A program made the translations under genes and the position numbers. From positions 34,287,220-34,307,219 of the forward strand of contig NC_057719.1 in NCBI RefSeq assembly GCF_004010195.1: a stretch of 20,000 bases of DNA, read 5' to 3'. Source of the stretch: Chiloscyllium plagiosum (lineage: Eukaryota). Of the stretch, positions 1 to 20,000 are shown piece by piece. A model generated the notes under the pieces. The model had not been told where the DNA came from. It saw only the letters and a list, made by a program, of their open reading frames with translations, and made no database searches. The stretch's first letter is position 1; each line of letters opens with the position of its first letter.

Positions 1-804
1 TGAACCAGCAGCCTCCACTTCAGCAGTGGGAGTCCAGAGAGCACAAACCAGGGGCAGCCGGGAAGGTAAATTTGAATATTAAATACTTACGTTGTGAATC
101 AGTGGAGCGATGGCTGAATAGGAGCAGAAGTGGACACAGGGACTGCTGGGTAAGTGGACGAATATATTCAGGCACTGGTTAATCTAAAACACTACATGCA
201 CAATGTGTCCCACCCGTCCTCCTCTTCTAAACTAAAAAAAGACTCTGTGTGGAGGGTTGTTAAGGTAAGGATGTTTATTTTTTTAATCACTTTTGGCAAT
301 GTAGAGAAGAGGGGATGGAAGCTAGGGCAGTTGCATGCTCCTCTTGTAGGATGTGGGAGGTAAGGGTCACCACTACTGTCCCTGCTGACCTCACTAACGA
401 TAAGTGCACCCAACTCCAGCTCCTCACAGACCGCGTTAGGGAACTGGAGCTGGATGATCTTCGGGTCATTTGGGAGGCTGAGGGGGTGATAGAGAGGAGT
501 TACAGAGAGATAATTACACCTAAGTTACAGAATAAAGGTAACTGGGTGAACATCAAGAGAGGAAAAGGGAATAAGCAGGGATCCCATGTGGCCATTCCTG
601 TCAATAATAAGTACACCACTTTGGATACTGTTGGGGGGGAACAACCTACCAAAGGAAAACCAGAACAGCCAGATCTCTGGCACTCAGCCTGGCTCTGTGA
701 CTCAGAAGGGGAGAGCGGAGAATAGGAGAGCAAAAGTGATGGGAGATTCAATGGTTAGAGGAACAGACAGGAGATTCTGTGATCACAAACAAGATTTCTG
801 GATG

Positions 805-966
805 TTCAAAATTTGGGCGAAGATTTGTAGCTCGGGTGCTCATTGCTGTGGTTCTGTTCGCCGAGCTGGGAATTTGAGTTGCAGACGTTTCGTCCCCTTG
901 TCCAGGTGACAACCTCAGTGCTTGGGAGCCTCCTGTGAAGCGCTTCTGTGATCTTTCACAGGATGA
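805..966 (-). mobile_element. Short Penelope-like pLTR fragment with hammerhead ribozyme, inserted in CR1 ORF1
   Basis: Interrupts ORF1 between RFCDHKQDFWM and CCLPG. Flanked by ATTTCTGGATG (794-804) and ATTCCTGGATG (967-977). HHR-like core on the minus strand at ~881-921. Confidence 0.8.
881..921 (-). ncRNA. Minimal type I hammerhead ribozyme relic (A9 changed to U)
   Basis: Minus strand GCA-CTGAGGT-TGTCACCTGGACAAGGGGAC-GAAACGTC-TGC: stem I GCA/TGC, stem II GTCACCT/AGGGGAC, palindromic ACGT stem III, GUC site. Confidence 0.7.
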
Positions 967-1489
967 ATTCCTGGATGGAATGTTGCCTCCCAGGTTCCAG
1001 GGTCAGGGATGTCTCGGATCGAGACTACAGGATCCTTAAGGGGGAGGGATAGCAGCCAGAATCATGGTACACATCGGTACCAATGACATAGCTAGGAAAA
1101 GGGATGAGGACCGAAAAGTGAATGTAGGGAGTTAGGTTGAAAACTAAATGACCGGATGAGCAGAGTAGTAATCTCAGGATTGCTACCAGTGACATAGGCT
1201 AGTGAGGCTAGGAACAGAGAGCGAGTGCAAATGAACACTTGGCTGCCAGGCTGGTGTAGGAGGGAAGGCTTCACAGATGTGGATCATTGGAATACCTTCT
1301 GGGGAAGGTGGGACCTGTACAAGGAGGGCGGACTGCATCTGAACTGAAGGGGCACCAATATCCTGGGCAAGAGGATTCCTAGAACTCTTCAGAAAAAGGA
1401 TGGGTTAGCTGGTAAACAGGCAGATACAGCATGCAGAGACTCTGTGAGGAAGGATAGACATTCGATAGGGCAAAGTTGCAGTCAGTGCG

Positions 1490-3873
1490 ATGGGTTGAAG
1501 TATGTCTATTTTAATGCAAGGATAATTGTTATGGACTCAGAGCTTGGATCAGTACTTGGAACTATGATGTTGTGGCCGTTATGGAGACTTGGATATCACA
1601 GGGGCAGGAATGGTTGTTGGATGTTCCAGGGTTTCAATGTTTCAAAAGGAAATTGGAGGGAGGTAAAAGAGGTGGGGGTGTAGCATTGCTAATCAGAGAC
1701 AGTATCACAGCTGCAGAAAGGGAGGTCATCGAGGAGGGTTTGTCAGAGTCAGTATGGGTGGAAGTCAGAAACAGGACAGCAGCAGTCACTTTATTGGGAG
1801 TTTTCTACAGACCCCCCAATAGCAACAGAGACACGGACGAGCAGATTGGGAGGCAGATTTTGGAAAGGTACAGAAGTAACAGGGTTGTCGTCATGGGTGA
1901 CTTCAACTTCCCTAATATTAATTAGAACCTTAGTGCGAATAGTTTGGATGGAGCAGATTTTAGCAGGTGTATCCAGGAAGGATTCCTGAATAGAGGGGAG
2001 GCCATATTGGATTTCATGCTTAAAAATGAACCAGGTCAGGTGTTAGATCCAAAGATAGGAGACCATTTTGGTGATAGTGATCGCAACTCCCTGACCTTTG
2101 GTATGGGAAAATATTTAACTGGCGGAGGGGAATAACATTACTATTAGGAACGGACTGTCGAGCATAAATTGGGAACAGATGTTCTCAGGGAAATGCACAA
2201 CAGAAATGTGGGGATTATTTAAGGAGCACTTGCTGCGAGTGCTGGATAGGTTTGTCCCACTGAGGCAAGGAAGTGATGGTAGGATGAAGGAACCTTGGAT
2301 GACAAGAGATGTGGAACATCTAGTCAAGAGGAAGGAGGAAACTTACTTGAGGTTGAGGAGGCAAGGATCAGACTGGGCTCTAGAGGGTTACAAGGTAGCC
2401 AGGAAGGAACTAAAGAATGGACTTAGGAGGACTAGAAGTGGGCATGATAAAGCCTTAGCAAGTAGGATTAAGGAAAGCCGTAAGGTATTCTATACTTATA
2501 CGAGGAACAAGAGGATGGCCAGAGTGAAGGCAGAGCTGATCAAGGATAGTGGAGGGAACTTGTGCCTTGAGTCAGTGGAGGCAGGGGAGGTCATTAATGA
2601 ATACTTTGCTTCAGTATTCACTATTGAGAGGGACCTTGTCTTTTTTGAGGATAACAGGCTGATATGTTCAAACAGGTTGATATTAAGAAGAAGGATATGC
2701 TGGAAATTGTGAAAAAAAAGACAACAGATAAGTCCCCTGGGCCAGAGTGGATATACCCAAGGTTACTACACAAAGTGAGGGAACGGATTGCTGCGCCTTT
2801 GGCGATGATCTTTGTGTCCTCACTGTCCACTGGAGTCGTACCAGATGTTTAGAGGGTGGCAAACATTATTCTCTTGTTCAAGAAAGGGAATAGGGTTAAC
2901 CCTGGGAATTACAGACCAGTCAGTCTTATGTCAGTGGTGGGCAAATTATTGGAGAGGATTCTGAAAGATAGAATTTATGATTATTTGGATAAACACAGCT
3001 TGATTAGAGATAGTCAGCATGGCTTTGTGAGAGGCAAGTCATGCCTCACAAACCTTACTGAGTTCTTTCAGGATGTGACAAAACATATTGATGAAGGTAG
3101 AGTAGTGGATATGGTGTATATGGATTTTAGCAAGATGTTTGATAAGGTTCTCCCATGGTAGGCCTATTCAGAAAGTAAGAAGGCATGGGATACAGGGAAA
3201 TTTGCTATCTGGATACAGAATTGACTGGCCCATAGAAGACAGAGGATGGTAGTAGATGGAAAGTATTCAGCCTGGAACTCGGTGACCAGTAGTGTTCCAC
3301 AGGGATCTGTTCTGGGACCTCTGCTTTTTGTGATTTTTATAAATGACCTGGATGAAGAAATGGAAGGGTGAGTTAGTAAGTTTGCTGATAACGTGAAGGT
3401 TAGTGGAGTGGTGGATAATGTGGAGGTCTGTTGTAGATTGCAACGGAACATTGACGGGATGCAGAGCTAGGCTGAGAAGTGGCAGATGGAACTCAATCTG
3501 GAAAAGTGTGATTCATTTTGGAAGGTTGAATTTGAATGCAGAATACAGGGTTCTTGGCAACGTGGAGGAACAGAAGAATCTTGGGGTGACTTGATAGAGG
3601 TGTACAAGATGAGAGGTGACTTGATAGAGGTTTACAAGATGTTGAGAGGCATAGATAGAGTGGATAGTCAGAGACTTTTTCCCAGGGCGGAAATGTCTAT
3701 CATGATGGGGCATAAGATTATTAGAGGAAGGTTTAGGGGAGATGTCACAGGTAGGTTCTTTACACAGAGGGTGGTGGGGCATGGAATGCACTGCCAGCGG
3801 TGGTAGTAGAGTCAGATGCATTAGGGACATTTAAGTGACTCTTGGATAGGCACATGGACAGCAGTAAAATGTA
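1490..3873 (+). pseudogene. CR1 ORF2 remnant: apurinic endonuclease + reverse transcriptase
   Basis: APE motifs YFNAR, ETW, GGGVALL, YRPP, GDFNFP, GDSD(R). RT motifs [42 protein letters not shown] (~3295-3321), KFADN (decayed FADD, ~3378-3392). C-terminal RGDLIEVYK and FFTQRVV. Split over many frames. Confidence 0.93.
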
Positions 3874-4705
3874 GGTTAGTCTGATCTTAGAGAATGATAA
3901 AAGGTCAGCACAACATCGATGGCCAAAGGGCCTGTACTGGGCCCTATGTTCTATGCTCTATGTTCTATACCCGAAATATCAGGTTGTTGTTGAGACTGAA
4001 GCCGTTGAAACTTATGAACTGCACCGGTTATTTGCTTGCTTTAACATCACAAACAGATACTTTATCTGGGTTTCATTTGATGTTACTCTACTTTACTAAC
4101 ATATAACTGATTGAATACACTATAGTAACTTGATTGCACTGAGAGAGTGACTGAAGGAAAGGCTAATACTGTCACATAGCATGTCTTGTAACTGTCTTAA
4201 AGTTTCACTGTCTGTATTATGTAGAATCAATCCAATAATACAATATCCCTGCTTTTTCATTTAAAGCATGAGATATGCACAAGGATGAAAATGATACAGT
4301 GTCTCTACACATTTAGATAATGCTTTGATGAATCTCCAACATGACCAGATCAAGCTCTTATTCAGTTATCACTGTTTGTCTACTTCATTCTGTGGTCTGC
4401 TGTTTATCATCACAGATGGATGTGTATATTTGTATATTTGTGGATGTCTAATTATTGTTTAGCATGACATCTTCAGTATCCGGGTCATCAGCCTGTGAGA
4501 CAGGTGATTGATTATGTGCAGTTAGATATATCACCTATTCCTTCTCCAGTCTTGACCATTTCTCAATGCTGTGTGCAATGATCTAGGTTGGACTCAATGA
4601 ACTAGTATCTCTCCAAAAACTCAAGTGTTTATAAAATGTCACATTAATACTTTATCCTGGTTCAAGTTGGGATAACTGTATAAACAGTGGGCTCTGCAAG
4701 GTCAT

Positions 4706-5280
4706 TAATAGACAAGCAGGAGGCTGGAAGAACACAGCAAGCTAGGCGACATCATGAGGTGGAGAAGTCAATGTTTTGGATATAAGCCCTCTTTAGGACT
4801 GGGGGTGGGAGTGGGGTGAGCTGCAGATAAAGGGGATGGCAAGGGCAGGGTGATGAGGTGGGGATAGGTGAAGACAGGTAGAGGATACAACCTGGTTGGT
4901 CAATGGGAGGAATGAATCCAGTTGGTGGCAGGGAGCAGTGGAGGGGAAGGGGAGGGGCTGAGAAGGAAGTCAGGGGATGGGACGGGAGGTTATTTGAAAT
5001 TGGAGAACTCAATTTTGAGTCCTCCGGGCTGTAGGCTGCCCAGGCGGAAAATGAGGTGTTGTTCCTCCAATTTATGGTGTGGTTCATTGTGTCAATAGAG
5101 GAGGCCAAGGTTGGTCATGTCGGAAGGGGAGTGGTCAGAAGAATTGAAATGGGCGGTGACGGAAGGCATGACAAAAAGGGAGTGGTTAGCGGTATGTCAG
5201 AAATGGAGTGGTTCGGGGCATGTCGGGCCTCCTGCTTCCTGCCTATCTATTTTGGATTCCAGCACCTGCAGTATTTTTGT
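4706..5280 (-). mobile_element. 5'-truncated Penelope-like element (GIY-YIG C-terminus + pLTR with HHR relic) with an inverted pLTR end
   Basis: Minus strand ~5160-4990 reads VTAHFNSSDHSPSDMTNLGLLY*HNEPHHKLEEQHLIFRLGSLQPGGLKIEFSNFK*, typical of a PLE GIY-YIG end. HHR relic AGTC-CTAAAGA-GGGCTTATATCC-AAAACATT-GACT at 4766-4800. AAGCAGGAGGC (4714-4724) is inverted at 5227-5237. Direct repeats CTCTGCAAG(G/A)TCAT at 4692-4705 and 5281-5294. Confidence 0.88.
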
Positions 5281-5399
5281 CTCTGCAAGATCATCAGGCT
5301 GAGAGTAGTGAGGAGAAGAGGTAGTATGTTAAAGTCTTCAAGAATTATTCTAATCCTAACCATTGGGGATATTTGTGGTGTGTTCACCTCCTGTTAGTT

Positions 5400-5960
5400 G
5401 TCTAACCTTCCACCACCATTCAAGAGCAGATGTGTTAGAACTGCAGAACTTAGATCTGATCAAGTGATCGTGAAATTACTTAGCCCCATTTATGGCATGC
5501 TGTTTCACTGTTTGGCATGCATCTAATTCTATATTGCAGGTTTACCAGGTTGACAATTTATTTTTAAATATACCTGCTGCTACTCCCAGCATGCTATCCT
5601 GTGTTCTTGGTTGAATCCAGATTGATCTCCCAATTTAGAGTCACGGTAAAGTGGGACATGTGGTGAACCATGAAGTTACAAATTGTGCTTGATTACAGTT
5701 CTGCTGTGACAGATGGCTCACAGAACCTCATAGATGCCCAACTTCAAAGTGCTATGACAATTTTGAGACTGTCCCATTTATATGGTAGTAATGACATATT
5801 ACTAGTAGTATCCTCAACGTGAAGACAGAACTTTGTCTCCACAAAGACTGTGCGGTGTTCATTCCAACAGATGCAGTCATGGACAGGCATATTTTCAAGA
5901 GGTAGATTGATGAAGACAAAGTCAAGTAAGTATTTTTCCCCTTGCTGATTCCCTCACTGT
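5400..5960 (-). mobile_element. Old CR1/L2-group LINE ORF2 fragment (end of APE domain and linker)
   Basis: Minus strand gives LDFVFINL (~5930-5905), HRTVFVET (SDH-motif relic, ~5858-5835) and GDQSGFNQEHRIACWE*QQVYLKINCQPGK (~5630-5540), resembling the PWF linker after APE. Confidence 0.65.
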
Positions 5961-5999
5961 GTGCCACAGACTTTTGAAGTTTGGATCAAGTGCCACAAT

Positions 6000-6087
6000 C
6001 AGATCCTCCATAATCTTGTCAAAGACAGACAGACTGAAAGGGCTGAATGGCCTACTCCAGCTTCTAATATGTATGTTCCTATGTAAC
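6000..6087 (+). mobile_element. CR1-group LINE 3' end fragment
   Basis: GGGCTGAATGGCCTACTCCAGCTTCTAATATGTATGTTCCTATG; same tail type as the minus-strand tail at ~11969-12005 and the one at ~14910-14950. Confidence 0.6.
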
Positions 6088-7285
6088 GTCTGCAAATAAT
6101 ATTACCCAAGACGAGAAAGGGATAAGAGACAATTTTTTGTCCTATTTGAAGTAAAACTTGCATAAAGAGGCAGGAATAAGAAAAAGAACATCTTGTCCTT
6201 CCGGCCACTGACATCATTACTAAACATGTTCAGGATATTGTCCACACACCAGTTGCAATGCCAATCTGCCTTGATATCAAATTTGTGTCATCCAATTCAA
6301 GTTGAGCTAGGAAACTATCCAATCAGGTTCTCCAAATTAAATTCTGCATAAGATTTCTTTTTGTTCAATTTGATGTTCTACACTCACTTGGTATCACTCT
6401 CTGTCCCTCTAATTTACTCTTCACCATCGTAATAATTTTCTCTCTCTCTCTCTTTCCTAGCCTGGTGATGTTGTACTGTCTATCCTTTCCTAAGCATCAG
6501 GTAATATTTTCTGTTAGAACTATTGAAGAAGTACAAAAAATATCGTACTGAATAGTCAGAATGAATTTTAACAGGGATAATTGTGCTGGACCCAAGCCCA
6601 TTAAATGTTTGAGCAGGTAACAGGAAGAGTATCTGTGTGTACGAGCCTGCAAAAGGTCACAAATAGTGAGCATCACAGTGACATTGATGGCCTCAGGCAT
6701 GAGCTTCTCAGCAAATCTGTGTGACTGCTGCTCTTGCTACACAATCCCACATATTTCAGTGACCAGGACAGGCTCAGTCACCTCTGGTATTGCCTCTGTC
6801 TGAAGGTGCATTGACACACTATGCTGTTATCCCTGGATGGCTGCATCCTGACTAAATTATCCCTTCGTCTGCCTGCTGCTTGTGTAGTAGTCTCAGTATT
6901 GTTCTTTGTCATATCCTTTCTTCCTGATCACAGAGTTGCAGGAATATTGAGTGAATGAGACCATGTATTATGGAAGCATTACAACTATAAAGCCATTTCA
7001 GTGGTGAGATTTATAAATTCTTCTGTTGTCCATAACCAAAACTCCACCACCACATTCTAGCTTATTACAAGCTCAAACTTACTTGTGATTTTGAAAATAT
7101 TGGCAAAATGGTAATGTCACGTTTGTGAAAGAACCAAAGCCTCAACTTTACCGACATCAATTGGTATTAATCCTTCAAATACATCCACATCATTACACCA
7201 GACTGTCTCACCTGTCAATTGAACTTGATGTCTTGCCCTCAAGTCTGCATATTTCCTCTGACAGCATTCTCAGTGTATGTGTTTT

Positions 7286-7648
7286 TCATAGAATCCCTAC
7301 GGTGTGGAAAAAGGCCTTTCAACCCATCAAGTCCTGCATCAACCCTCCAAAGATGTCCCACCTAGAACAAGCCCTAACCACCATTCTAGCCCCATGTCCC
7401 AGCATTTCCCAAGGCTAATCCACTTAACATGCACATTTCTAAGTACGACAAGATAAACTAGCATGGCCAATTCACCTAACCTGCACATCATTGGACTGTG
7501 AGAGGAAACCAGAGCACCCATAGGAAATCCACGCAGACATGGGGAGAACATGAAAACTCCACACAGACAGTAGGCACGATTGGAATCAAACCCATGTCCC
7601 TGGCACTGTGAGGCAGAAATACTAACCACCGTGCCACAATCCCACGCC
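7286..7648 (-). mobile_element. HE1-like (V-SINE) tRNA-derived SINE
   Basis: Minus strand: A-box region TGGCACGGTGGTTAGTA (7636-7620), B box GGGTTTGATTCC (7593-7582), V-domain-like TGTGTGGAGTTTTCATGTTCTCCCCATGTCTGCGTGGATTTCC, CR1-like tail ending GGGATTCTATGA. Family name from recall. Confidence 0.88.
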
Positions 7649-8439
7649 ATCACCTCCCCCTTTATGTTCAATTCCATGATTTTGACCTTTGATAATCCCA
7701 AGCCCAGACTGGAGCTGGCCCCTAAGGAATTGATCACTCTCGTGTGACTGTGAATATTCTCACTGCCAGTCAACACCCTGAGCTGGAGCCACAGGACTGC
7801 CATGCAGACAGCACGGACCTCACCATTTAGTATCCTCATTTCTGTTACCTTCACTGATTGCCTCAAGCATCAGCCCCGGCCTCACCTACCAGACATACGA
7901 CACTAGGTCTTTCCAACTTCACTCCTATCTGCCCCTGATCCCAACCTCCGTCTTTAGTTAGATCCTTCTTCTACTCTCCCATTCCTCTGACCTCACATTA
8001 CTCCAATCAAGCACTTTCTCCTCCAACATTCCAAACAAGCCATCGTTCTCCCTTGTGCTGCAGAGTTCAGCAAAGTCAACCGTCCACCTCAGGCATAACT
8101 GCACAAAGCTAACTGTTGCAATTCACATGGAGACAAAAGTGAATCATGTACCACTGTCAAAATTTCAAATGAGGATCTAATTTCCCATGACAATAATGAA
8201 AAGTAAATGTATTACAAATAGGAACATGACACAAGACATTGAGGCCAGTGCCGCCACACAGATTTTTCTCCAATTTCCATACCACAAAGCACCATCTGGA
8301 AATTGTAACTGAAGCTCCTACCTATTTGAGACATGCCACCCACTGTGATTTCTGTTCTTACAGACACTATAAAATGCCATCCATATTCTCTTGTACCTTA
8401 CTATGGGAAAAATGAGTCATGATACTTAACGTGAAGGGG

Positions 8440-8555
8440 TTCTTTTAGTGCAGTGGCAATGTGCCTACCTCTGGACCAGACAGCTTGGGTTCAAGTCCTA
8501 CCCACTCCAGAGGAGTGTAATAATATCTCTGAACTGGTCGATTAGAAGATATCCA
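8440..8555 (+). mobile_element. tRNA-derived SINE head (second family)
   Basis: A box TAGTGCAGTGG (8446-8456) and B box GGTTCAAGTCC (8488-8498) at tRNA-like spacing; no convincing cloverleaf, so not a tRNA gene. Confidence 0.6.
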
Positions 8556-8610
8556 TAATAATATATGAAAATCCCAAACTGAGTACAAATCAAGGCATTT
8601 ATTGGAAATG

Positions 8611-8737
8611 GAAGAAAGTGAGGACTGCAGATGCAGGAGATCAGAGACGAAAAGTGTGGTGCTGGAAAAGCACAGCCAGTCAGGCAGCATCTGAGGAGCG
8701 GGAGAGTCGACGTTTCAAGAATAAGCTCTTCATCAGG
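8611..8737 (-). mobile_element. ~127 bp Penelope-derived HHR cassette with TSD
   Basis: Flanked by ATTTATTGGAAATG (8597-8610) and ATTTAATGGAAATG (8738-8751). Downstream part (GCTGTGCTTTTCCAGC...GCATCTGCAGT) resembles the pLTR at 4711-4760/5227-5285. Confidence 0.88.
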
Positions 8738-8740
8738 ATT
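8705..8740 (-). ncRNA. Minimal type I hammerhead ribozyme with intact core nucleotides
   Basis: Minus strand AATC-CTGATGA-AGAGCTTATTCTT-GAAACGTC-GACT: CUGAUGA and GAAA intact, palindromic ACGU stem III, GUC triplet; stems I and II imperfect. Confidence 0.75.
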
Positions 8741-10514
8741 TAATGGAAATGCTTGTTTTACCCAGACACACAAACTTAGAAACTTTGACTAAAAATGTAA
8801 AATACAAAAGGCAAACACATTGATATTCAGAGCATTTCCTCCAATTCAGCTATTTCACATGTGACCTTAAAAATTTTACCAGGACTCCCACTGATTTCTG
8901 GCTTTAGTAAATTATGTTAGTTCAGGTTTACTGAGTCATCTCTCAGAAGCTGCACATTTTGAGAAAATGAAACTCAAGGAAGCAAAGTAATTATTGTGAT
9001 GATCATTTCAGATGCAAGAGTAACTGAAGGCATGTAAATATTACAAAGAAATTTATCAAGAACATCATTTGAAACAAGACAAATGACATTATCATGGTTA
9101 CAGTAATCATTGTTTGCATTATTTTGTTAACCCAGTCCAACCACGAATGTGCACAGCAGGTAACTTATTAAATGATCATCAGTACAGATTCTAGTCCAGA
9201 AATTGGAATTAAAAAAAACAATAGTCTATCTTATTCAGCAATTTCATCTCCACAAGACTTGTTAGCCATTCACAGAATCAGTGAACATGTCAATGCAGGA
9301 TTTCTAACAGGAACCATAGCTTAGTCAAGTATTTAAATATTAATGCATACAGAATGAGGGAGTGATTTGTTCGGTTGGTCAGGTGTTGGGCTGGGTTCAA
9401 TTTCAGTCTGGTTTCGTTAGACTTGGCAATTGCCTCTTGCTTGATGCAGAGTGGTGTCCCTTCAGCTTTACAATCAATATCTACCTGTAACAGAGGGATG
9501 CCTCTTGTCCTTTGAGGATGATGCCTAATGGCCGATCGCATAGAAGCTGAGCAATATTTGCTGCTCATCGAGCACTACCTACTCTTTTTGTCAGTTAATA
9601 TTGCCAGCTACAATTCTTACAGTAATTTGTGGGTTTCTTTACTCCAGCCAGTCGGATTCACTTCAGAACCAGCTCCTCCACATGAAAACAAAGAGGGATA
9701 ACACTATCAACAACATTTAATTGTATTCTATTGAATGGTCCAAGTAGTAACATTGGTTTTACTCAGGTTTTGCAATTTCTTTATTCTAACATTAGTGCCA
9801 CAACATTTTTGCAACATTTTATGCCAACATTTACAATAGGAAGTTGTATTCAACACTTGCCTGTCACTGTGTAATTGAAACCTTCTGTTCAAGATGTTTT
9901 TGTTCCCCTTTTTAAAAAAGAAGTATTACTGTTTGACTGTGCCTGAGGATTTTAATGTTTGAATAATTTGCATTTTTGAGCTTCTAGGTCTTTGATTCCT
10001 GTTTTGGTCTCCTTTTCCCATTTCAACCTTGATTGCAGCCATACAATTGGATGAGAGCCTGGTGTCTCCTATTTATCAACTCTGGCCTCCCAGACATGTT
10101 CTCTGAACATACCAACACTGCACACTGCTCCCTCCACCATCCCAACTCCCCTTCTCCTGGGCATCCGAGTCCGACCATGTTCTCCAACCATCACACTTGT
10201 TTTGGTAAATTCCACCCTGTACTTTTATTGATCAGCTCTGGGGTCCTGTATAACCTTGTGTTTCCATTTTTGTCTTCAACAGAAAATTGACACTCTGAGC
10301 TTTGTAATTTAATGAAAATGTGAAAGCACAAAAGTTCAGAGGTTCGCACTGGAGAATTTTGATAAGCTTTATCTCAGTGTCAAAGGTTACATGGCAAACA
10401 GATAACTAGGCTGTACTCACAAGCCTGTCGATGAGTTTAACCATGTAGCATGTGGGACTGTAGGTCTCACAACACTTTAACAGACTAGTGAACATTTTTA
10501 GTAGACAGTAGATA

Positions 10515-10670
10515 AGAACCATAGAACATCGAACATCGAACATTACAGCGCAGCCCTTCAGTCCTTGATGTTGCATCAACCTGTGGAACCAATTTGAAGC
10601 CCATCTAACCTACACTATTCCATTCTTATCCATATGCCTATCCAATGACCATTTAAATGCCCTTAAAGTT
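10515..10670 (-). mobile_element. CR1 LINE 3' end (strongly 5'-truncated)
   Basis: 7-bp tail repeats (GAACAT-based, 10515-10543), the reverse complement of the tail type at 3944-3968, followed by 3' UTR and the ORF2 end (minus strand AFKWSLDRHMD). Confidence 0.8.
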
Positions 10671-11063
10671 CAGATTCAAATATCACATATGTGTCATGCA
10701 CAAATCAGAGGGCAGGAGATTGTGGTCTTTTCAAGAAAATACATTTCTCATGTTAACCAACAAAGATTTTAGTAAGGGTTGGGCCTAAAGGACATACCAT
10801 GGCAACATTAATGCATCATTAGAAGAGATTCTGCTCTTGAAAATTACAGGTAGTTCTTCTGTAACATGATGCTTGCGTTCTTGTGCAACCCTATGTTATC
10901 AAAACATCGCACTTTAGAAATAGCACTTAAAGCGTTGACGATGTATTCATGTCATAACCGACACATTTTAAAAGTTTGTGCTGGGGAAACAATGTCTCCA
11001 GTTCGTCATTCACATTACAGTGAATTTGTTTTAAAGAAATGTGTGTTATAACAGAATAACCTG

Positions 11064-11485
11064 CATTTACTAAATAATTTACTACACTAATACTTACAAT
11101 GGAAACTATTTAAGATCATTATGTCAAACTGATAGAGTGATGCACTTACATGTACTAGAAGCTACAGATATAGATACACAGGACCCTCTTTTATGAAAGC
11201 AAAAGGAATTCATACAAACATTGCACCTTTTTCAAAAGTAGGTGTCTTGGAGACAGCCAATCTCTACTGCATCCCTCTGGCAACACCTTAACAAATCATA
11301 ACCCACCTGCCTGATCTGAGAATTAAGATTGATAGTTAACTGTTCTTCCGTAACTCCGTACCACTGATGGCCCAACCAATCAGCACCATCTTCTCATGCT
11401 GTGTAAAATGGTGTCTCTTTCCTGCAATTTAGTTTGTATGTTTTAGTTCTTGTGAGTGCAAAATGCAAAGCTTGCTGCTTGTATC
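11064..11485 (+). mobile_element. Old Penelope-like element 3' fragment (GIY-YIG C-terminus + pLTR relic)
   Basis: HLLNN (11064) and FKII (~11109), then 11143-11241 HLHVLEATDIDTQDPLL*KQKEFIQTLHLFQK*, resembling a PLE GIY-YIG terminus (LEAxxI...P.LCxQKE). Then a CCAAT box (~11377) and a decayed HHR-like CTTGTGA-GTGCAAAAT-GCAAAGCTT (11449-11473). Confidence 0.65.
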
Positions 11486-11761
11486 CTATCAGAAATATTT
11501 AAATTCTGAACTACTGAGAAACTATACATGAGATTTGTAAAAAAGGATTTGCATTGTTTTCCACAGTCTTCTGGATCGCAAACTTGAGATCTTAACTCTT
11601 TATTTCCTGTAACAAGGGATTACATCACAGAGATCTTTTTTCTTTCCTGAGCTTTAACTTTGTCCAAAACATTATAATCTGGTTTTAATTTATTTTAAGA
11701 AAAAGGAGATGATAATAATCTGTTGGCTCCTTTCCATTGGAGACATGTAGATTTGTCCTTG

Positions 11762-11946
11762 TGATTAGATTACTTACAGTGTGGAAACAGGCCCTTTGGC
11801 CTAACAAGTCCACACGGACCCTCTGAAGAACAACCCACCCAGACCCCTGACCCCTGACACCACGGGCAATTTAACATGGCCAATTAAACCTAGGTGTCTG
11901 GCGCTGTGAGGCAGCAGTGCTATCCACTGTGCCACTGTGCCACCCC
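11762..11946 (-). mobile_element. HE1-like SINE with internal deletion
   Basis: Head GGGGTGGCACAGTGGCACAGTGGATAGCACTGCTGCCTCACAGCGCCAG and tail (CCTGTTTCCACACTGTAAG) match the 7286-7648 copy, but the B box and V-domain are missing (fusion near 11885-11895). Confidence 0.82.
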
Positions 11947-12130
11947 AGGTTTATCTCTCCCTGAAATTACATACTTAAAAATAGGAGCCAGGACTAGGCC
12001 ATTCGCACCTTGAACTTGCTCTGCCATTCATGGCTGACCTGATTGTGGCCTTAATTTTGCTGCCATACCAACTACCAATATCCCATGATTCCCTTGTAAG
12101 TCAAATATCTATCTAGTTCTTCACTAAATA

Positions 12131-12662
12131 CAGAAATCACACTTTACCAGGTTATAGTCCAACAGGTTTACAGAGGGGCCTTGATTATCCAGCAATCAAT
12201 TAACTGAATTTCGGATTAGCCGAACAAGATCGCAAAGTCCTGATGCTTGGCGAGCTATTATCCAGCATTCAATTATCCAGCATTCGATTAACTGAACAAA
12301 ATACTCCCGCCTGTGTCCTTCAGATACAGGTTCCTCTGTATTTGGAAGCACTAACTTTCAGAGAACTGCTCCTTCATCAGGTGGTTGTGGAGATCATAGG
12401 ACACAAAATGTTTAGCAAAAGATTACAGTGTCATACAGTGATATATTGAATTAACCTGGATTGTTAAGCCTTTCATCTTTTAGAATATAGGTTTCAGTTC
12501 ATTAATATATATATGCTATAAATTCTGTGTCTTATGATTTCATACTCCACAACCACGTGATGAAGGAGTAATGCTCCGAAAGCTAGTTCTTTCAAATAAA
12601 CTTGTTGGACTATAACATGGTGTTGTGTGATTTCTAACTTTGTCCACCTCAGGCTCCTCTAC
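12131..12662. mobile_element. Fold-back (inverted pLTR) Penelope-derived non-autonomous element with an HHR in each arm
   Basis: Left arm 12132-12170 + 12341-~12417 is the imperfect reverse complement of right arm ~12514-12635. HHR (-) CAC-CTGATGA-AGGAGCAGTTCTCT-GAAAGTTA-GTG at 12349-12383; HHR (+) CAC-GTGATGA-AGGAGTAATGCTCC-GAAAGCTA at 12554-12585. Possible TSD TAAATA (12125-12130, 12668-12673). Confidence 0.85.
12171..12338. mobile_element. Tc1/mariner superfamily (Tigger/pogo-like) MITE, 168 bp
   Basis: TA duplication (12169-12170, 12339-12340). Termini CAGAGGGGCCT and AGGTTCCTCTG (9/11 inverted). Internal ATTATCCAGCA at 12184, 12257 and 12272. Removing it restores the match to the opposite PLE arm. 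Confidence 0.88.
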
Positions 12663-14074
12663 TTAATTAAATATATTCAGTGACACTGCTTCCACCACTG
12701 TCTGATGAAGAGAAGTTCACAAGTTCAGAGCCCCCTGAGAGAAAAAAAATCTCCTCTATTTTAAATGAGCGACACCTTAACTTTAAACAGTGTCCCCTGG
12801 TTCTCGTCTCTCTCACAAGGAGAACCTATATTGCAGCATCTTATCTTCAGGTCACCTCTGGATTTTACGTATTTCAATAAGATGCAATCTTCTAAACTCC
12901 ATTAGATACAGGCCCAATCTGTCCGACCATTTTTCCTAAAATAATCCTCTAATCCCAGAAATCATTTGGTAAAGTGTGATTTCTGTATTTCACTGAACTG
13001 AACTGCTTTGAATTATTTCTTTAATATGAAGACCAAATGTTTACACAGTCCTCTTGGTATGATTCTACTAGTGCCCTGTACGAAGCTTTGTAACTTGTAT
13101 TTTCCTTTACCCTTGCAATAACTTGCAATATTCCATTTGCTATCCTGATCACTTGCTGTACCTGCATATTAATGTCTTGTAATTCATTTTGTGACCTTGT
13201 GAATTATTTGCTACGTGTTCCTGATTGTCCCAAAAGCGGCAATGATTGTAATATAATCACAAAGCCAGTGTTGGAATGTAAATCACTTGATCTCTTTCTT
13301 GCTTAAGAGATTCATATTTATCCATATTGTGAATGAACAAATCACATTTTCAATCTTTGTTTTCAAGTACAGAACAATGCATTAACAATTCATTTTTTTT
13401 AAGGAACATTTTACACTGAGACAGGACTTTGCAATGACTTTGGATCTGTTACATCCACTTTGAAGAAAACACTGTCAATTTTGCTTGGATTTGATTCCTG
13501 AATCCTCATCTCTTTTTTTGGAAGTTACAGAAGGCTTTTATTTTTCATCAAAGAAATGAATGTATAAATATGGTGATTAAAATTCTGCCTCACACATTAC
13601 ATAGGATGCATTCACAATGGAAAGAATAGAAAGAAGCAAAAGACTAAAGGGTAAAACAATGTACCATGAGGAAAGATTAGATCACATTCTACAGTCCGGT
13701 GAGCATGGCAGTTAAAGCTGGACATGATGAAACAATAAACTATTAACATCAGTAAAGCAGGAAATCAGCAGCAAAGAACATCAATACAATTTAGTGAAAA
13801 GTCAATTTGTTAATTTATAACAGACATCAGGATGTCCTGCTTTACTCAAGGGAGCACTAAATTGTTCAAATAATCTGCCAAGTCAGGTAGCATGCCAAAG
13901 AACTGAGATGTTAAAATACAGTGAACTGCAAAGATACTTTGAACTTAAAAGATGAACCTTGACGGACTAAATTGCAATGTTCTCATTACCAAATGCGATG
14001 AAAGATGTATCATGTAATCTTTTAGAGCTTGCATTTCAAACTGGAGGCATATGCATGTCGGTCGCTTCAACAAA

Positions 14075-14452
14075 CATACATTCCCTCCACTACTAATGTG
14101 CAGCAGCAGTGTATGCCATCTAAAAGATGCACTGCATAAATTTGCCAAGGCTCCTTAACCCACAACCACTACCATCTAGAATAACATGTGCCACAGATAC
14201 ATAGAAATACAACCACCTGCTTGTTCCCCTCCAAGCCATTCACAATCCTGATTTGGAAATATATCACCTTTCTTATACTGTCGCTGAGTCAAAATCCTGG
14301 AACTCCTTCCCTCATATCACCAGGTGTAACGACAGCAAATGGAATGCAGCAATTTAAGCAGGCAACTAGCCATCAACATCTCAAGGTCAACTAGAGATAG
14401 GCAATAAATGTTGGCCCAGCCAATGCAGTCTATATTTTTCAATGAAAAAAAT
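14075..14452 (+). mobile_element. Old CR1/L2-group LINE 3' end
   Basis: AAAATCCTGGAACTCCTTCCCT (KSWNSFP), then tail GGCAATAAATGTTGGCCCAGCCAA...AATGAAAAAA. Homologous in inverted orientation to ~17395-17790. Confidence 0.75.
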
Positions 14453-14486
14453 AATCTGGCTGTCCTAGTTTGTGAATAACAATAGG

Positions 14487-14952
14487 TTCGTATGTAGGTA
14501 CAGCAATTAATTTGGAAAGCTAATGGAAAGTTATCATTCATTGTGGGAAGTATTAAGTACTAAATAGGAAGACTGTGCTTCATTTTACAGAGCATTTGTT
14601 AAACTATCTCATCATGTACTTCTTGTGGAACAATTTAAAATTGAAGTTACTGTATAAAATAAGGGTTTATCATGTGAGGTAATGGTTTATCATGAAGGTT
14701 TAAAATAAGGGTTTATCATAATATTTTATCACAATGAGCTGTGAATCTTTGGAAATCTTTTCCTCAAAAGGTGGTGGATACAGACTTTGAATATTTTTAT
14801 TGCAGTGGTCAATAGTTTCTTGAATAGGAGGTGAAAGGTGATCAGGATAGATAGGCATGTGGAGTAATCAGATCAGATATGATCTTGCTGAATGATGAAG
14901 CAGTCTTAAGGGACTGACAAGCCTTCTCTTGCACTTATTTCATGTTTATATA
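14487..14952 (+). mobile_element. Old CR1 3' fragment with internal deletion and local duplications
   Basis: QQLIWKANGKLSFI motif (~14500-14541), GTGAATCTTTGGAA (VNLW), and a CR1-type 3' UTR/tail to ~14950. Confidence 0.7.
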
Positions 14953-15624
14953 TAAGATAAATGTTTCTCAAAACCTGTTACTTTGTACCAATAAATTCAT
15001 AAACATGATGAAAACAATTCCATCTGCACACCATGAAAAAGTTCTATAGATTGCACTGCAACTGCAAGAAGAGCAACAGACTGGATTGTAAAGAAGTTGG
15101 GTTATGAGGAGAGAAACATTGTGTTAAAAAGTTTCTGTTAATTTAAGGCTGTAGAAGAATGCTACATGTTCGAAATAATTTGCCAAGTTATTTAATAGCC
15201 AGAAACCAATGGCCCGATTTGAACCATCAGCAGGTAGCAGATGGCTATCCCCATGGCAGTTTGAGTGATGATCTGACAAGTTTTAATGCAGTGACTGATT
15301 GGAATGTTGCAAGTCAGTTAATCTGTTTCAGCAGACCTCCATCTTCCAGCAAAACATGAAATGCTCCTTTGTAGTTTCCTAATTGACCTCTATAAAGCAT
15401 ATGGATCAATATTCCTGCCATTCAATCGTTAATTAAATGTACCTACTATTATTTGATGATCAATTGTCCTTTTTTTTATAAATGGGACAGGTTTCACTAA
15501 AGCAGTTCATTAGCTGAATAAAGAGATATTTAGGCTTTTGAAGCAGAGTTAAGAAAAGTCTGTCACCAGTTTCTGAAATGTTTAATGTTATGAAAATGGA
15601 ACTCATACCCTCTCCAACCTCTAA

Positions 15625-15662
15625 CTCTCTCTCTCTCTCTCACACACACACAAACACACACA
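15625..15662. repeat. Compound (CT)8(CA)~11 microsatellite
   Basis: Read directly; one interruption in the CA run. Confidence 0.95.
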
Positions 15663-16041
15663 GAGTCTGAACCTCATCATTTGGATAGGATTAGCTAGCT
15701 GACTAAGAAATGGCAGTTTTGATGCTGAAGGTTACAAACGTCTTGCAGAAGAGATGATTAGAAATTTTCAGAAGTGTTAATACTTAACTGTAAATATGTC
15801 TCTGTAGAATCAGGATTAACTGAACAATTTGATAAATGTTAAGAGTTCATGCGACCAACTAAATCTTCAAAAGCATATAACTTGGTGAATGAAATTGTCC
15901 ATAAGTTTCAAAGATCAGAATAACATTAGAAAAAGCAAAATTATGGATGATCATTTTAGTTTTTATTATGAAATCCCTGGTTTCATTTTGCAGTTAAATC
16001 AAATTCACATTTATATACACAAAGCAACTGTACATCGTTTT

Positions 16042-17025
16042 TGACAGGGATGAAGGCTATCTCAGAGTACAATGGGACCATGATCAGATGGGCCAACGGG
16101 CTGAGGAGTGGCAGATGGAGTTCAATTTAGATAAATGTAAGGTGTTGCATTTTCGTAAGACAAACCAGGGCAGGACCTATACAGTTAATGAAAGGGTCCT
16201 GGGGATATTGCTGTACAAAGAGACCTAGGGATGCAGGTGCATAGTTCCTTGAAAGTGGAGCCGTACATATGCAGGATGGTGAAGAAGGCGTTTGGCATGC
16301 TTGCCTTTATTGGTCAGTGTATTGAGTATAAGAGTTGGGACATCATGTTATCGCTGTACAGGATATTAGTTAGGCACTTTTAGAATTTTGCATTCAATTC
16401 TGGTCTCCCTGCTATAGGAAGGATGTTTTTAAACTTGAAAAGATTTAGAAAAGATTTCTAAGGATGTTGGCAGAGTTGGAGGATTTGAGCTATAGGGAGA
16501 AGCTGAATAGGCTGGGGTTGTTTTCCCTGGAGCATCAGTAACTGAAGGGTGACCTTATGCAGGTTTATAAAATCATGAGGGGCATGGACAGGGTAAACAG
16601 ACAAATTTACTAGCATAGGGAGTCCAAAACTAGAAGGTATAGGCTTAAGGTGAGAGGGGAAAGATTTAAAAAGGGACCTGAGGGGTAACTTTTTCATGCA
16701 GAGGATGTTGCATGTGTGGAACAAATTGCCAGCGGAAATGGAGGAGATGGATAAAATTACAACATTTAGAAGGCATCTAGATGTGTATATGAATAGGAAT
16801 AAGAGGAATATGGGCCAAATGTTGGCAAATGGGACAACATCAGATTGAAAACAATGAGTGCTGGCAATCACAGTGGGTCAGGCAGCAACCATGGAGAGAG
16901 AACAAGTTAATGTTTCGAGTCTAGATGACACTTTATCAGAGCTGGGTCGGACTGGGATATCTGGTCGGTGCAGACAAGTTGGGCTAAATGGTTTGTTTCT
17001 GTGTTGTATAACTCTATGACTCTAT
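16042..17025 (+). mobile_element. 5'-truncated CR1 LINE (post-RT ORF2 C-terminus + 3' UTR)
   Basis: EWQMEFNLDKCKVLHF, RDLGMQVHSSLKVE, KKAFGMLAFIGQ, GDLMQVYKIMRG, GNFFMQR; tail ACTCTATGACTCTAT at 17011-17025. Interrupted at 16848-16944. Confidence 0.93.
16848..16944 (-). mobile_element. ~97 bp Penelope-derived HHR cassette inserted in a CR1 3' UTR
   Basis: Absent from the related CR1 at ~19365-19395. Minus strand CAGCT-CTGATAA-AGTGTCATCTAGACTC-GAAACATT-AACT. Degenerate TSD ATCAGATTG (16839-16847) / GTCGGACTG (16946-16954). Confidence 0.78.
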
Positions 17026-17394: not shown

Positions 17395-18190
17395 TGGTTG
17401 TTACTCACTTATGGGATGTGAGTCTCACCTGGATAGGTTATTGTTTGTTGTCCATTCCTAACTATCCTCAAAAAGATGGTGGTGAGCTGACTTCTTGAAT
17501 TGCTGCACCTATCTGGTGTAGGTGCGTGCAGAATGCCGTTATGAAGGGACCTCCATGGTTTTGGCCCAGCAACACTGAAGAAAAGGTGATACATTTCCAA
17601 ATCAGGATGGCGAGTGACTTGAGGTCAAACTTAGATGTGACAGTGTTCTTTTTCCTTCTAAATGGTCATGGTCATGGGTTTGGAAGATGCTGTCTAACAT
17701 GAATGTTTGCACTATATCTTGTAGATGGGAAACATTGCTGCTATTGAGCTTCAGTGGTGGAAGAATGGAATACTTATGGATGTGATGCCAATCAAGCAGG
17801 CTGCTTTCTCCTGAATAGTGTCAAGCATCTTGAGCGTTGTTGGAGCTGCACTCATTCAGTTGAGTAGAAAGTATTCCATCACACACTCCTGACTTGTGCC
17901 TTGTAGATGGTGGACTGCACTGGGGAGTCACAAATTGAGTCAACACAACCACAACATTCCTAGTCTCTGGTAGGCTCTTGTAGCCACAGTTGAGTTTCTG
18001 GTCAATAGTAACGCCCAAAATGTTGATAGTGGGGATTCAGTGATAATGATCCCACTGAATGTCAAGGAGCAAGGGTTAGATTTTCCCTTGATGGAGATGG
18101 TTATTGTCCGGCACTTGTGTGGCATTAATGTTATTTCCCACTTGTCAGCCCAAGCCTAGATATTATCAGGATCTTTTTGCATTTGGGTAT
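17395..18190 (-). mobile_element. Old CR1/L2-group LINE 3' portion (same family as 14075-14452)
   Basis: Reverse complement aligns by eye with 14075-14452 (CATCTACAAGAT, ATCCTGATTTGGAAAT, CTGGGCCAAAACCATGGAGGTCCCTTC). Upstream decayed post-RT motifs (ADKWEITLMPHKC, ILGVTIDQKLN). Confidence 0.78.
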
Positions 18191-19301: not shown

Positions 19302-20000
19302 AGTCATAGAGTCATAGAGATGTACAGCATGGAAACAGACCCTTCGGTCCAACCCGTCCATGCCGACCAGATATCCCAACCCAATCTTGTCCCACTTGCC
19401 AGCACCCAGCCCATATCCCTCCAAACCCTTCCTATTCATATACCCATCTAAATGCCTCTTAAATATTGCAATTGTACCAGCCTCCACCACATCCTCTGGC
19501 AGCTCATTCCATATGCGTACCACCCTCTGCATGAAAAAGTTGCCCCTTAGGTCTCTTTTATATCTTTCCCCTCTCACCTTAAACTTATGCCGTCTAGTTC
19601 TGGACTCCCCAATCCTAGGGAAAAGACTTTGCCTATTTATCCTATCCATGCCCCTCATAATTTTGTAAACCTCTATAAGGTCACCCCTCAGCCTCCGATG
19701 CTCCAGGGAAAACAGCCCCAACCTGTTCAGCCTCTCCCTGTAGCTCAGATCCTCCATTCCTGGCAACAACCATGTAAATCTTTTCTGAACCCTTTCATGT
19801 TTCACAACATCTTTCCGATAGGAAGGAATCTAGAATTGCACGCAATATTCCAACAGTGGCCTAACCGATGTCCTGTACAGCCGCAACATGACCTCCCAAC
19901 TCCTGTACTCAATACTCTGACCAATAAAGGAAAGCATACCAAACGCCTTTTTCACTATCCTATCTACCTGTGACTCCACTTTCAAGGAGCTATGAACCTG
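19302..20000 (-). mobile_element. Relatively young CR1 LINE 3' portion, running off the window
   Basis: Minus-strand frame QVHSSLKVE...LEYCVQF*...ERVQKRFT...RGDLIEVYKIMRG...RIWNELP, with only one in-frame stop (19830-19832) and no visible frameshift. (CTCTATGA)n tail at 19302-19319. Confidence 0.95.

Follow-up and report, generated by a model that had tools for sequence, protein, structure and literature searches.

Minimal hammerhead ribozymes (min-HHRs) were described in 2014 within the pLTRs of metazoan Penelope-like elements (PLEs) (Cervera and De la Pena 2014, PMC4209133). They have a type I layout with an extra base between positions 9 and 10.1, a loop-less palindromic stem III, and a short stem I, and the same layout is found in the motifs considered here, which lie in a 20,000-nucleotide stretch (the window) of the genome of the shark Chiloscyllium plagiosum. 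In the 2014 work, several stem II families are reported per genome, mostly as solitary copies, as in the window, and pairs on opposite strands are reported 100-700 bp apart; two of the motifs here, sites 5 and 6, are likewise paired, with 177 bp between their C3 positions. The sequence-only reading of this DNA was right in saying that the concept is known. Sharks are not named in the text and supplementary files of PMC4209133, as far as these were examined, and a literature search for hammerhead ribozyme and shark genome together found no paper.

Among endonuclease-bearing (EN+) PLEs, those of the Neptune/Nematis type have a C-terminal GIY-YIG domain preceded by a CX4CxxC linker, and the insertion pattern described for PLEs includes an inverted 5' copy and a one-sided tail (Craig et al. 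2021, PMC8557442). In the Poseidon element of Anolis carolinensis (PAc), the ribozyme cut site lies 26 nt and the 3' end 111-118 nt from the start codon (Frangieh et al. 2024, PMC11167929). Non-LTR retrozymes, which are related to pLTRs, are, like the short copies described below, short, non-coding sequences with a type I hammerhead (PMC7229834; 10.64898/2026.07.22.740005).

All seven motif-like stretches of the sequence-only reading could be parsed at the positions and strands it gave (Table 1), and its claim of at least five distinct stem II sequences agrees with a count of five different ones. The core, CUGANGA...GAAA, is intact at 2/7 sites (3 and 5), has one lesion at three, two at one, and three at one, and the core lesions are not the same among homologous copies. 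The extra base between 9 and 10.1 is present at sites 1, 3, 5, 6, and 7 (5/7) and missing at 2 and 4. The pair closing stem II, 10.1-11.1, is G-C at sites 1, 2, 6, and 7, G-U at 3 and 5, and unformed at 4; the second pair of this stem shows one double-sided change between sites 2 and 3 (G-C against A-U). The loop-less palindrome of stem III is perfect at sites 1, 3 (ACGU), 6 (AGCU), and 4 (AAGCUU) and carries one change at sites 2, 5, and 7. The minimum-energy folds of the monomers mostly do not show a hammerhead, and the cleavage site is spanned uncut in every insert.

Table 1. Features of the window; hammerhead parses are given as C3 and the cleavage-site base H17, and control counts are random controls as good as the duplication found.
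Feature	Position	Strand	C3 / H17	Description
Left target-site duplication, insert 1	794..804	+		partner 967-977, 10/11 identical; 5/300 controls
Insert 1 (site 1)	805..966	-	918 / 884	162-bp Penelope-like end, Poseidon-type geometry; A9>U
Left target-site duplication, insert 2	4692..4705	+		partner 5281-5294, 13/14 identical; 1/300 controls
Insert 2 (site 2)	4706..5280	-	4796 / 4770	Penelope-like copy lacking its 5' part, with ORF end and 3' UTR, a hammerhead relic, and an inverted terminal copy on 5' side; G5>A, G12>A, palindrome broken
GIY-YIG endonuclease frame, C-terminal remnant	4993..5160	-		one in-frame stop
26-nt tandem duplication, 2.3 copies	5165..5224	.		at junction where insert 2 is truncated and inverted
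Inverted terminal copy of insert 2	5225..5280	+		18/22 to left arm; 2/200 shuffles
Left target-site duplication, insert 3	8597..8610	+		partner 8738-8751, 13/14 identical; 1/300 controls
Insert 3 (site 3)	8611..8737	-	8736 / 8709	127-bp end-piece; all core bases and ACGU palindrome intact, stems weakened; G10.1-U11.1 wobble, stem II of 3 pairs
Site 4, unconfirmed relic	11449..11474	+	11449 / 11474	three core lesions (G5>U, A6>G, A13>C); base 17 is G; stem I absent; AAGCUU palindrome; boundaries not found
Left arm, site 5	12126..12500	-	12380 / 12352	core intact; 10.1-11.1 G-U wobble; palindrome AGUU; split by later element; inner boundary approximate
TA-flanked element, short terminal inverted repeats (MITE-like)	12171..12338	.		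in arm 5, downstream of hammerhead
Right arm, site 6	12514..12659	+	12557 / 12585	C3>G; TATAAA begins 40 nt ahead of C3
Insert 7 (site 7)	16848..16942	-	16939 / 16909	approximately 95-bp end-piece in 3' part of LINE copy; G8>A, palindrome broken

A descriptor consisting of the core plus stem II finds 2 sites with no mismatch (0.4 in 20 shuffles), 8 with one mismatch and at least 4 pairs (3.1 in shuffles), and 48 with two mismatches (45 in shuffles); the last two counts are about equal, and so a two-mismatch relic carries no meaning by itself. With the full descriptor (core, stems I and II, palindrome, and H17), for which 40 dinucleotide shuffles served as the control, the window has 3 sites with up to 2 lesions against 0 in the shuffles, 5 with up to 3 against 0.05, and 8 with up to 4 against 1.55. 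Lesion scores on this scale are 2 for sites 1, 5, and 6, 3 for site 3, 4 for site 7, and 7, which is chance level, for site 4; no site is free of lesions (0/7). Site 2 is identified by its homology to site 3 (56/75; 0/200 shuffles) and by the reading-frame remnant that accompanies it. Rfam covariance models gave 7 matches at E <=10, none of which is a hammerhead, meaning that these models miss 5-6 such pieces within 16 kb.

The six independent insertions proposed earlier become five, which together hold six motifs, with site 4 left without confirmation. As discrete insertions, inserts 1, 2, and 3 are marked by target duplications of 11, 14, and 14 bp, and insert 7 by its absence from a paralogous LINE copy, in which the empty site lies at 19377-19383; insert 7 has no clear target duplication (77/300 controls as good). 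For the insertion with sites 5 and 6, the evidence is its inverted structure, a search for its target duplication having found no convincing one (59/300 controls as good), and at site 4 neither boundaries nor a duplication were found (300/300). Homology along the 3' module joins inserts 2, 3, and 7 into one lineage rather than leaving them among five unrelated families, which gives three confirmed lineages plus the doubtful site 4. Insert 3 begins about 1 base ahead of its hammerhead core and insert 7 begins 3-8 bases ahead of its own, so that 5' ends within 8 bases of the core are found in only 2/6 confirmed motif copies. In the portion of the window searched with nhmmer, using a profile for each insert, no further copies were detected, the output being self-hits and three weak rows (E 0.2-0.5). 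Among the 24 runs listed for 8800-15800, 20 contain this stretch or part of it, none of them listed as an RNA run; the shares of 0.27 or less in organisms B and C are left out of account. A 21-nt pattern from insert 3 has 0 matches in viral contigs; its matches in six metagenome stretches were dismissed as chance, being only 22-25 nt long and in contigs of 49-68% GC.

Insert 2 ties the motif to a coding element. Relatives of its GIY-YIG remnant occur in whale shark and zebra shark as proteins that combine RT with GIY-YIG and contain the CX4CxxC linker of the Neptune/Nematis type. The remnant is 53% identical over 62 residues to the whale-shark protein P0006, in which Pfam GIY-YIG scores 23.2 bits, against a cut-off of 22.6, and RVT_1 scores 22.7 bits, short of its cut-off of 29.6; a Pfam search with the remnant itself matched no family, and no relatives of P0006 were found in viral contigs. 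An alignment of the read-through tail of the zebra-shark protein P0008 stays in register through the hammerhead region of insert 2 (3/300 shuffles); that with insert 3 is weaker (11/300 shuffles). C3 is located about 190 nt past the stop codon, which places the hammerhead in a terminal repeat downstream of the ORF. The inverted copy reaches further 3' than the left end does, and the tail is present on one end only. Across the inserts, the features of EN+ PLE insertions are seen, namely 5' truncation, an inverted 5' copy (insert 2 and the insertion of sites 5 and 6), a one-sided tail, and a variable target duplication. An ORF with the PLE arrangement of RT and C-terminal GIY-YIG is traced for insert 2 only and extends to inserts 3 and 7 by homology; at 1, 4, and 5/6, a search for a connected RT or endonuclease frame found none.

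An older LINE, of which endonuclease and RT remnants persist, lies downstream of insert 1. As in PAc (PMC11167929), a frame is open from the start of stem II; it runs for 36 codons between 912 and the 3' end. The cut site is 26 nt past the putative start codon, the same distance as in PAc, and the 3' end is 108 nt from it. This codon is TTG in the present copy and was presumably ATG in the original. Folding of insert 1 is no better than that of shuffles (z 0.72). Its peptide matched no PLE protein (0 hits among 18 candidates), and the matches from an Atlas search are all under 0.8. The better of two hits by E-value, the plant LRR protein P0025, was rejected as a repeat artefact with no passing stretch. 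The peptide also matches a hypothetical protein of the liver fluke Opisthorchis viverrini, P0026 (KER30136.1), with 18/28 and 13/17 residues identical, in a segment that is repeated twice, and the residues preceding the match correspond to what a hammerhead core would encode; no relatives of P0026 were found in prokaryote genomes. This likeness reflects conservation or, possibly, a transfer. A horizontal exchange of the insert 1 family between trematode and shark lineages is unlikely; if it did occur, one ribozyme-bearing Penelope family would be common to a fish-borne parasite group and cartilaginous fish. The match is the sole lead here that may go beyond the routine, and literature listings included no paper titled for a transfer of Penelope elements between sharks and trematodes.

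Sites 5 and 6 are the two arms of a single inverted insertion. Arm 5 resumes in register beyond the MITE-like element that splits it, the lesions of the two sites are mutually complementary, and the arms fold back together at -108.6 kcal/mol over 260 nt. The C3>G change present at site 6 is one reported to abolish cutting (PMC11167929). The surrounding host DNA aligns to the LINE copy at 14.4-14.9 kb, with the alignment ending short of the junctions.

Together, these results give a probability of roughly 0.87 to the reading that the six motifs are mutated minimal hammerhead cores within five short insertions, which are likely defunct copies of the 3' ends of Penelope-like, endonuclease-encoding retroelements from at least three lineages, made by the mechanism outlined below. 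A Penelope origin is supported directly for insert 2 by the GIY-YIG remnant, the inverted copy, and the target duplication; it is supported for inserts 3 and 7, which would share it by homology to insert 2, and for 1 and 5/6 by architecture. The earlier assignment of Penelope-like origin and minimal type I architecture is supported for six of the seven motifs and not for site 4. Intact parent elements are presumed. By analogy with the anole Poseidon element (PMC11167929), the Penelope protein would nick AT-rich DNA, reverse transcription would start inside the element's own RNA, at a point some 95-125 nt 3' of the hammerhead core, and the template RNA would be left uncut by the ribozyme. Copying may have halted within the reading frame at insert 2 and ended just ahead of the core, probably at the RNA start, at inserts 3 and 7, while insert 2 and 5/6 would have acquired an inverted second arm. 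In the parent elements the motif may be a weak cutter, acting as a dimer or with help from protein; the solitary copies here are predicted to be inactive and in neutral decay.

Site 4 stands apart, and its claim to be a hammerhead was not upheld, given its chance-level score and lack of boundaries. There is a real chance, if below even, that it is an accidental likeness in old non-coding or repeat DNA: its best parse has seven lesions, no target duplication flanks it, it resembles other inserts in 0/9 pairings, and no look-alike was found in an index of scanned DNA. Against this, a six-base palindrome is located where stem III is expected, and a CCAAT and a TATA-like box (TGTAAA) lie 73 and 47 nt upstream, which can be compared with the TATAAA ahead of site 6. 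A repeat of this kind, with palindrome, CCAAT, and TATA-like boxes, is presumably present in shark genomes.

The sequence-only reading also spoke of ribozyme elements with no coding sequence. As separate families, the short copies (3, 7, 5/6, and perhaps 1) would be non-autonomous elements or retrozyme monomers, spread as units via self-cut circular RNA with borrowed Penelope proteins. Such an origin is improbable. The short copies do have little or no coding sequence, and non-LTR retrozymes, with a proposed derivation from pLTRs, are reported in the one chondrichthyan genome sampled (10.64898/2026.07.22.740005), but no tandem array exists at any site in the window (searched except for a 600-base stretch holding no site); its tandem repeats (11 rows, longest period 30) include 0 at hammerhead sites, and head-to-tail units with a hammerhead were not encountered. 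Moreover, the inserts do not end at the cleavage site, inserts 3 and 7 share homology with the end of the coding insert 2, and the motifs are minimal, whereas those of coral retrozymes are canonical type I (PMC7229834). Short reverse transcription products of coding elements are the simpler explanation. Activity is likewise not supported, every copy being lesioned. Sites 3 and 5 nevertheless keep all core bases, the former with its palindrome, and protein assists cutting by the anole motif (PMC11167929), so that one copy, most plausibly site 3, might cut a host transcript, in trans with genomic copies elsewhere or aided by protein, to regulatory effect. This is very improbable: both sites lack the G10.1-C11.1 pair and have mismatched stems, and a pairing matrix across the window gave their cores no compatible same-strand partner from another site. 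In vitro, cleavage is poor even for intact min-HHR dimers (PMC4209133), reads ending at the cut site are reported as not seen for the anole element (PMC11167929), and no host exon was identified.

Because inserts record where reverse transcription starts and ends relative to the motif, shark genomes could act as a large natural mutation set on the role of the PLE hammerhead. That use depends on genome-wide data, beyond one window, and the present case has little significance on its own. Compared with the min-HHRs of PMC4209133, every copy here bears lesions and no copy lies beside a full reading frame. Insert 1 differs from PAc (PMC11167929) in having no RT or endonuclease sequence and a mutated start codon, the likeness being one of geometry. 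Of the Neptune/Nematis-type reading frame (PMC8557442), insert 2 retains only about the last 56 codons, its clade being read through its relatives. Unlike non-LTR retrozymes, the inserts occur as single or inverted pieces with target duplications and have no tandem units. These are ordinary shark examples of the ribozyme class described in 2014 (PMC4209133).

The hammerhead insertions in the window are real, ordinary, and mostly dead, and they are of a kind known since 2014, when minimal hammerheads in the terminal repeats of Penelope-like elements (PLEs) were described in several families, mostly solitary (PMC4209133). The same source gives thousands of such hammerheads per genome for coelacanth and Xenopus, and their cleavage as dimers is reviewed in PMC6765202. 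PLEs are reported in every vertebrate sampled in PMC4350176, including elephant shark, and as expanded in whale-shark introns (10.1101/443036), while retrozymes are described from the single chondrichthyan genome of a 2026 preprint (10.64898/2026.07.22.740005). Our literature search found no paper joining a hammerhead ribozyme with a shark genome; thus, the shark families may be uncurated.

All seven hammerhead-like motifs claimed by the sequence-only reading (sites 1 to 7) are present where it placed them. A loose descriptor of the core is near chance level once mismatches are tolerated, finding 2 sites versus 0.4 by chance with no mismatch, 8 versus 3.1 with one, and 48 versus 45 with two. 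Signal is told apart from noise by a full minimal-hammerhead descriptor, composed after the sites were seen from features in PMC4209133, in which each departure in the core, stems I and II, palindrome, or cleavage-site base counts as a lesion. In comparison with 40 shuffles, this descriptor finds 3 sites versus 0 at 2 lesions, 5 versus 0.05 at up to 3, and 8 versus 1.55 at up to 4. Sites 1, 5, and 6 have 2 lesions, site 3 has 3, site 7 has 4 (one of three such sites in the window), and site 4 has 7. All core bases are kept at sites 3 and 5 only, and at both the G10.1-C11.1 pair has become G-U. An Rfam search, proposed as a check in the sequence-only reading, gives no hammerhead match at E up to 10. 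The fifth site with at most 3 lesions lies outside the original seven and is a possible eighth relic, with 3 lesions that include A6>U; a shuffled window would hold 0.05 such sites on average. It shows neither a target duplication nor similarity to any other insert of the window.

Features of the window, with the number of random controls giving an equally good target duplication
Feature	Position	Character	Controls as good
Insert 1	805-966	direct repeats 11 bp, one mismatch	5/300 random window pairs
Insert 2	4706-5280	direct repeats 14 bp, one mismatch	1/300 random window pairs
Insert 3	8611-8737	direct repeats 14 bp, one mismatch	1/300 random window pairs
Insertion 5/6		two arms, head to head	59/300
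Insert 7	~16848-16942	breaks LINE copy; paralogue uninterrupted at 19377-19383	77/300
Site 4	11449-11474 (+)	doubtful relic	
Possible eighth relic	15149-15181 (+)	3 lesions	244/300
TA-flanked element	12171-12338	splits arm 5	
Inverted copy at arm 5	12126-12149 vs 12967-12990	perfect over 24 nt	
LINE endonuclease	1515-1922	Pfam Exo_endo_phos, E 2e-16	
LINE reverse transcriptase	2853-3158	Pfam RVT_1, E 1e-11	
Tandem duplication	3585-3641	30 nt, in old LINE's reverse transcriptase region	
Further LINE copies	16.2-17.0 and 19.3-20.0 kb	78.8% identity across 618 nt	
Short-repeat copies	11775-11947, 19323-19368	common 46-nt head	
Other old repeat	14232-14306, 17547-17621	inverted copies, 77-79% alike	

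Six independent insertions had been claimed. Three lineages in five insertions are confirmed, since inserts 2, 3, and 7 are mutually homologous (56/75, 67/95, and 64/87; 0/200 shuffles as good for each) and sites 5 and 6 are the arms of a single insertion (59/69 identical in the core region and 34/39 in the tail); the boundary search found none at site 4. Insert 1, site 4, and 5/6 are unrelated to inserts 2, 3, and 7, apart from two short matches, the core of 3 with that of 5 and 15 bases of the arm 5 tail with insert 7. No target duplication stands clear of the random controls for 5/6 or insert 7. Arm 5 was split later by an element that carries 15-nt repeats internally and short inverted repeats at its termini, and the position of this TA-flanked element indicates the order of arrival: LINE, Penelope-like piece, TA-flanked element. 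Where arm 5 diverges from arm 6, at its 3' end, its sequence is identical to a stretch lying 820 nt off. This inverted copy, 89% alike over 38 nt, points to a switch of template or a small inversion in the course of insertion.

Old repeats are abundant in the window, whose GC content is 41% and whose observed/expected CpG ratio is 0.22. Its first 4 kb contain a decayed LINE with endonuclease and reverse transcriptase remnants, and the latter region carries a tandem duplication. We take the old LINE and short repeats to be CR1 and SINE, the copies with a common head being presumably SINE-like. Another old repeat is present in two inverted copies.

The link to PLEs is most direct for insert 2, whose minus strand retains the end of a frame: ~56 codons, interrupted by one stop. 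This remnant matches shark proteins P0001-P0004 at 58-71% and, across 62 residues, whale-shark P0006 at 53%; its closest named relatives are whale shark and zebra shark proteins, hence a shark-like source for the DNA. P0006 has a GIY-YIG domain barely over the Pfam cut-off, a partial reverse transcriptase under it, and the CX4CxxC linker, a mark of the Neptune and Nematis clades (PMC8557442). In zebra-shark P0008 the tail is over-long, and it can be aligned in register across the hammerhead region of insert 2 (3/300 shuffles) and that of insert 3 (11/300 shuffles), modest evidence that the same motif follows the same frame in another genus. As annotated, this RefSeq protein continues in its last 128 residues through the 3' UTR of a Penelope element and on into the hammerhead, and several shark "uncharacterized proteins" (among P0001-P0024) are pieces of Penelope elements or of LINE-Penelope chimeras. 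Insert 2 also bears an inverted terminal copy that extends further 3' than the opposite end, the PLE insertion pattern described in PMC8557442. For 5/6, architecture alone makes the case for a Penelope-like element.

As inferred from PMC11167929 together with PMC8557442, DNA would be nicked by the element's protein, and this protein would prime reverse transcription at a point of the element RNA that lies downstream of the hammerhead. Because the cleavage site lies inside every insert, the templates were uncut; the anole element likewise used uncut templates in vitro (PMC11167929). The 3' end lies 114 nt from C3 in insert 1, 126 nt in insert 3, and ~95 nt in insert 7, and inserts 3 and 7 start at most 8 bases from C3. 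Site 6 has a TATAAA box 40 nt ahead of C3 (0.012 expected per 21-nt slot; a single case). This box and the starts of inserts 3 and 7 would fit a model in which the RNA leader is copied as far as its start, a model that holds for only 2 of 6 copies.

Hammerhead cutting by these copies today is unlikely, judging from their sequences, because site 6 has C3>G, a change that abolishes cutting (PMC11167929); the core is lesioned at sites 1, 2, and 7; full stems I and III arise in the pairing matrix between different sites only for the dead site 2 core with the site 3 strand; and a transcript across 5/6 is predicted to fold back on itself. Copies located elsewhere in the genome may pair with them in trans.

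The insert 1 peptide (window 805-960, minus strand) has two matches among 1.84 billion representatives. P0025 was rejected as a repeat artefact. The other match, P0026, is a hypothetical protein from Opisthorchis viverrini, partial in the record; its two matching stretches (18/28 and 13/17 identical) together give E 5.6e-4. The matched segment occurs twice in P0026, and the residues ahead of both stretches are those spelled by a hammerhead core, so that a fluke repeat probably shares the insert 1 module. The core peptide pattern, written only after P0026 was seen, occurs in full form in 7/20000 shuffles and in partial form twice in 0/20000. Core and downstream match share one frame in the fluke peptide, one base off relative to the window, which speaks against a start that was simply conserved. 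The resemblance is more likely to stem from constraint where ribozyme, protein-binding site, and first codons overlap than from horizontal exchange of the family between the trematode and shark lineages, which we consider improbable. Site 1 resembles the schistosome PLE motifs described in PMC4209133 in its stem II, 7-8 bp in those motifs, and in its extra base.

Insert 1 contains no reverse transcriptase or endonuclease sequence. Its frame is open from the start of stem II through to the 3' end; owing to lesion A9>U, the putative start codon now reads TTG, presumably in place of ATG. Counted from the first base of this codon, the cut site is 29 nt away (26 after the codon), and the 3' end is 108 nt from the codon. 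This geometry is comparable to that reported for anole Poseidon, in which the frame begins at stem II, the cut falls 26 bp past the start codon, and reverse transcription begins 111-118 bp into the frame (PMC11167929).
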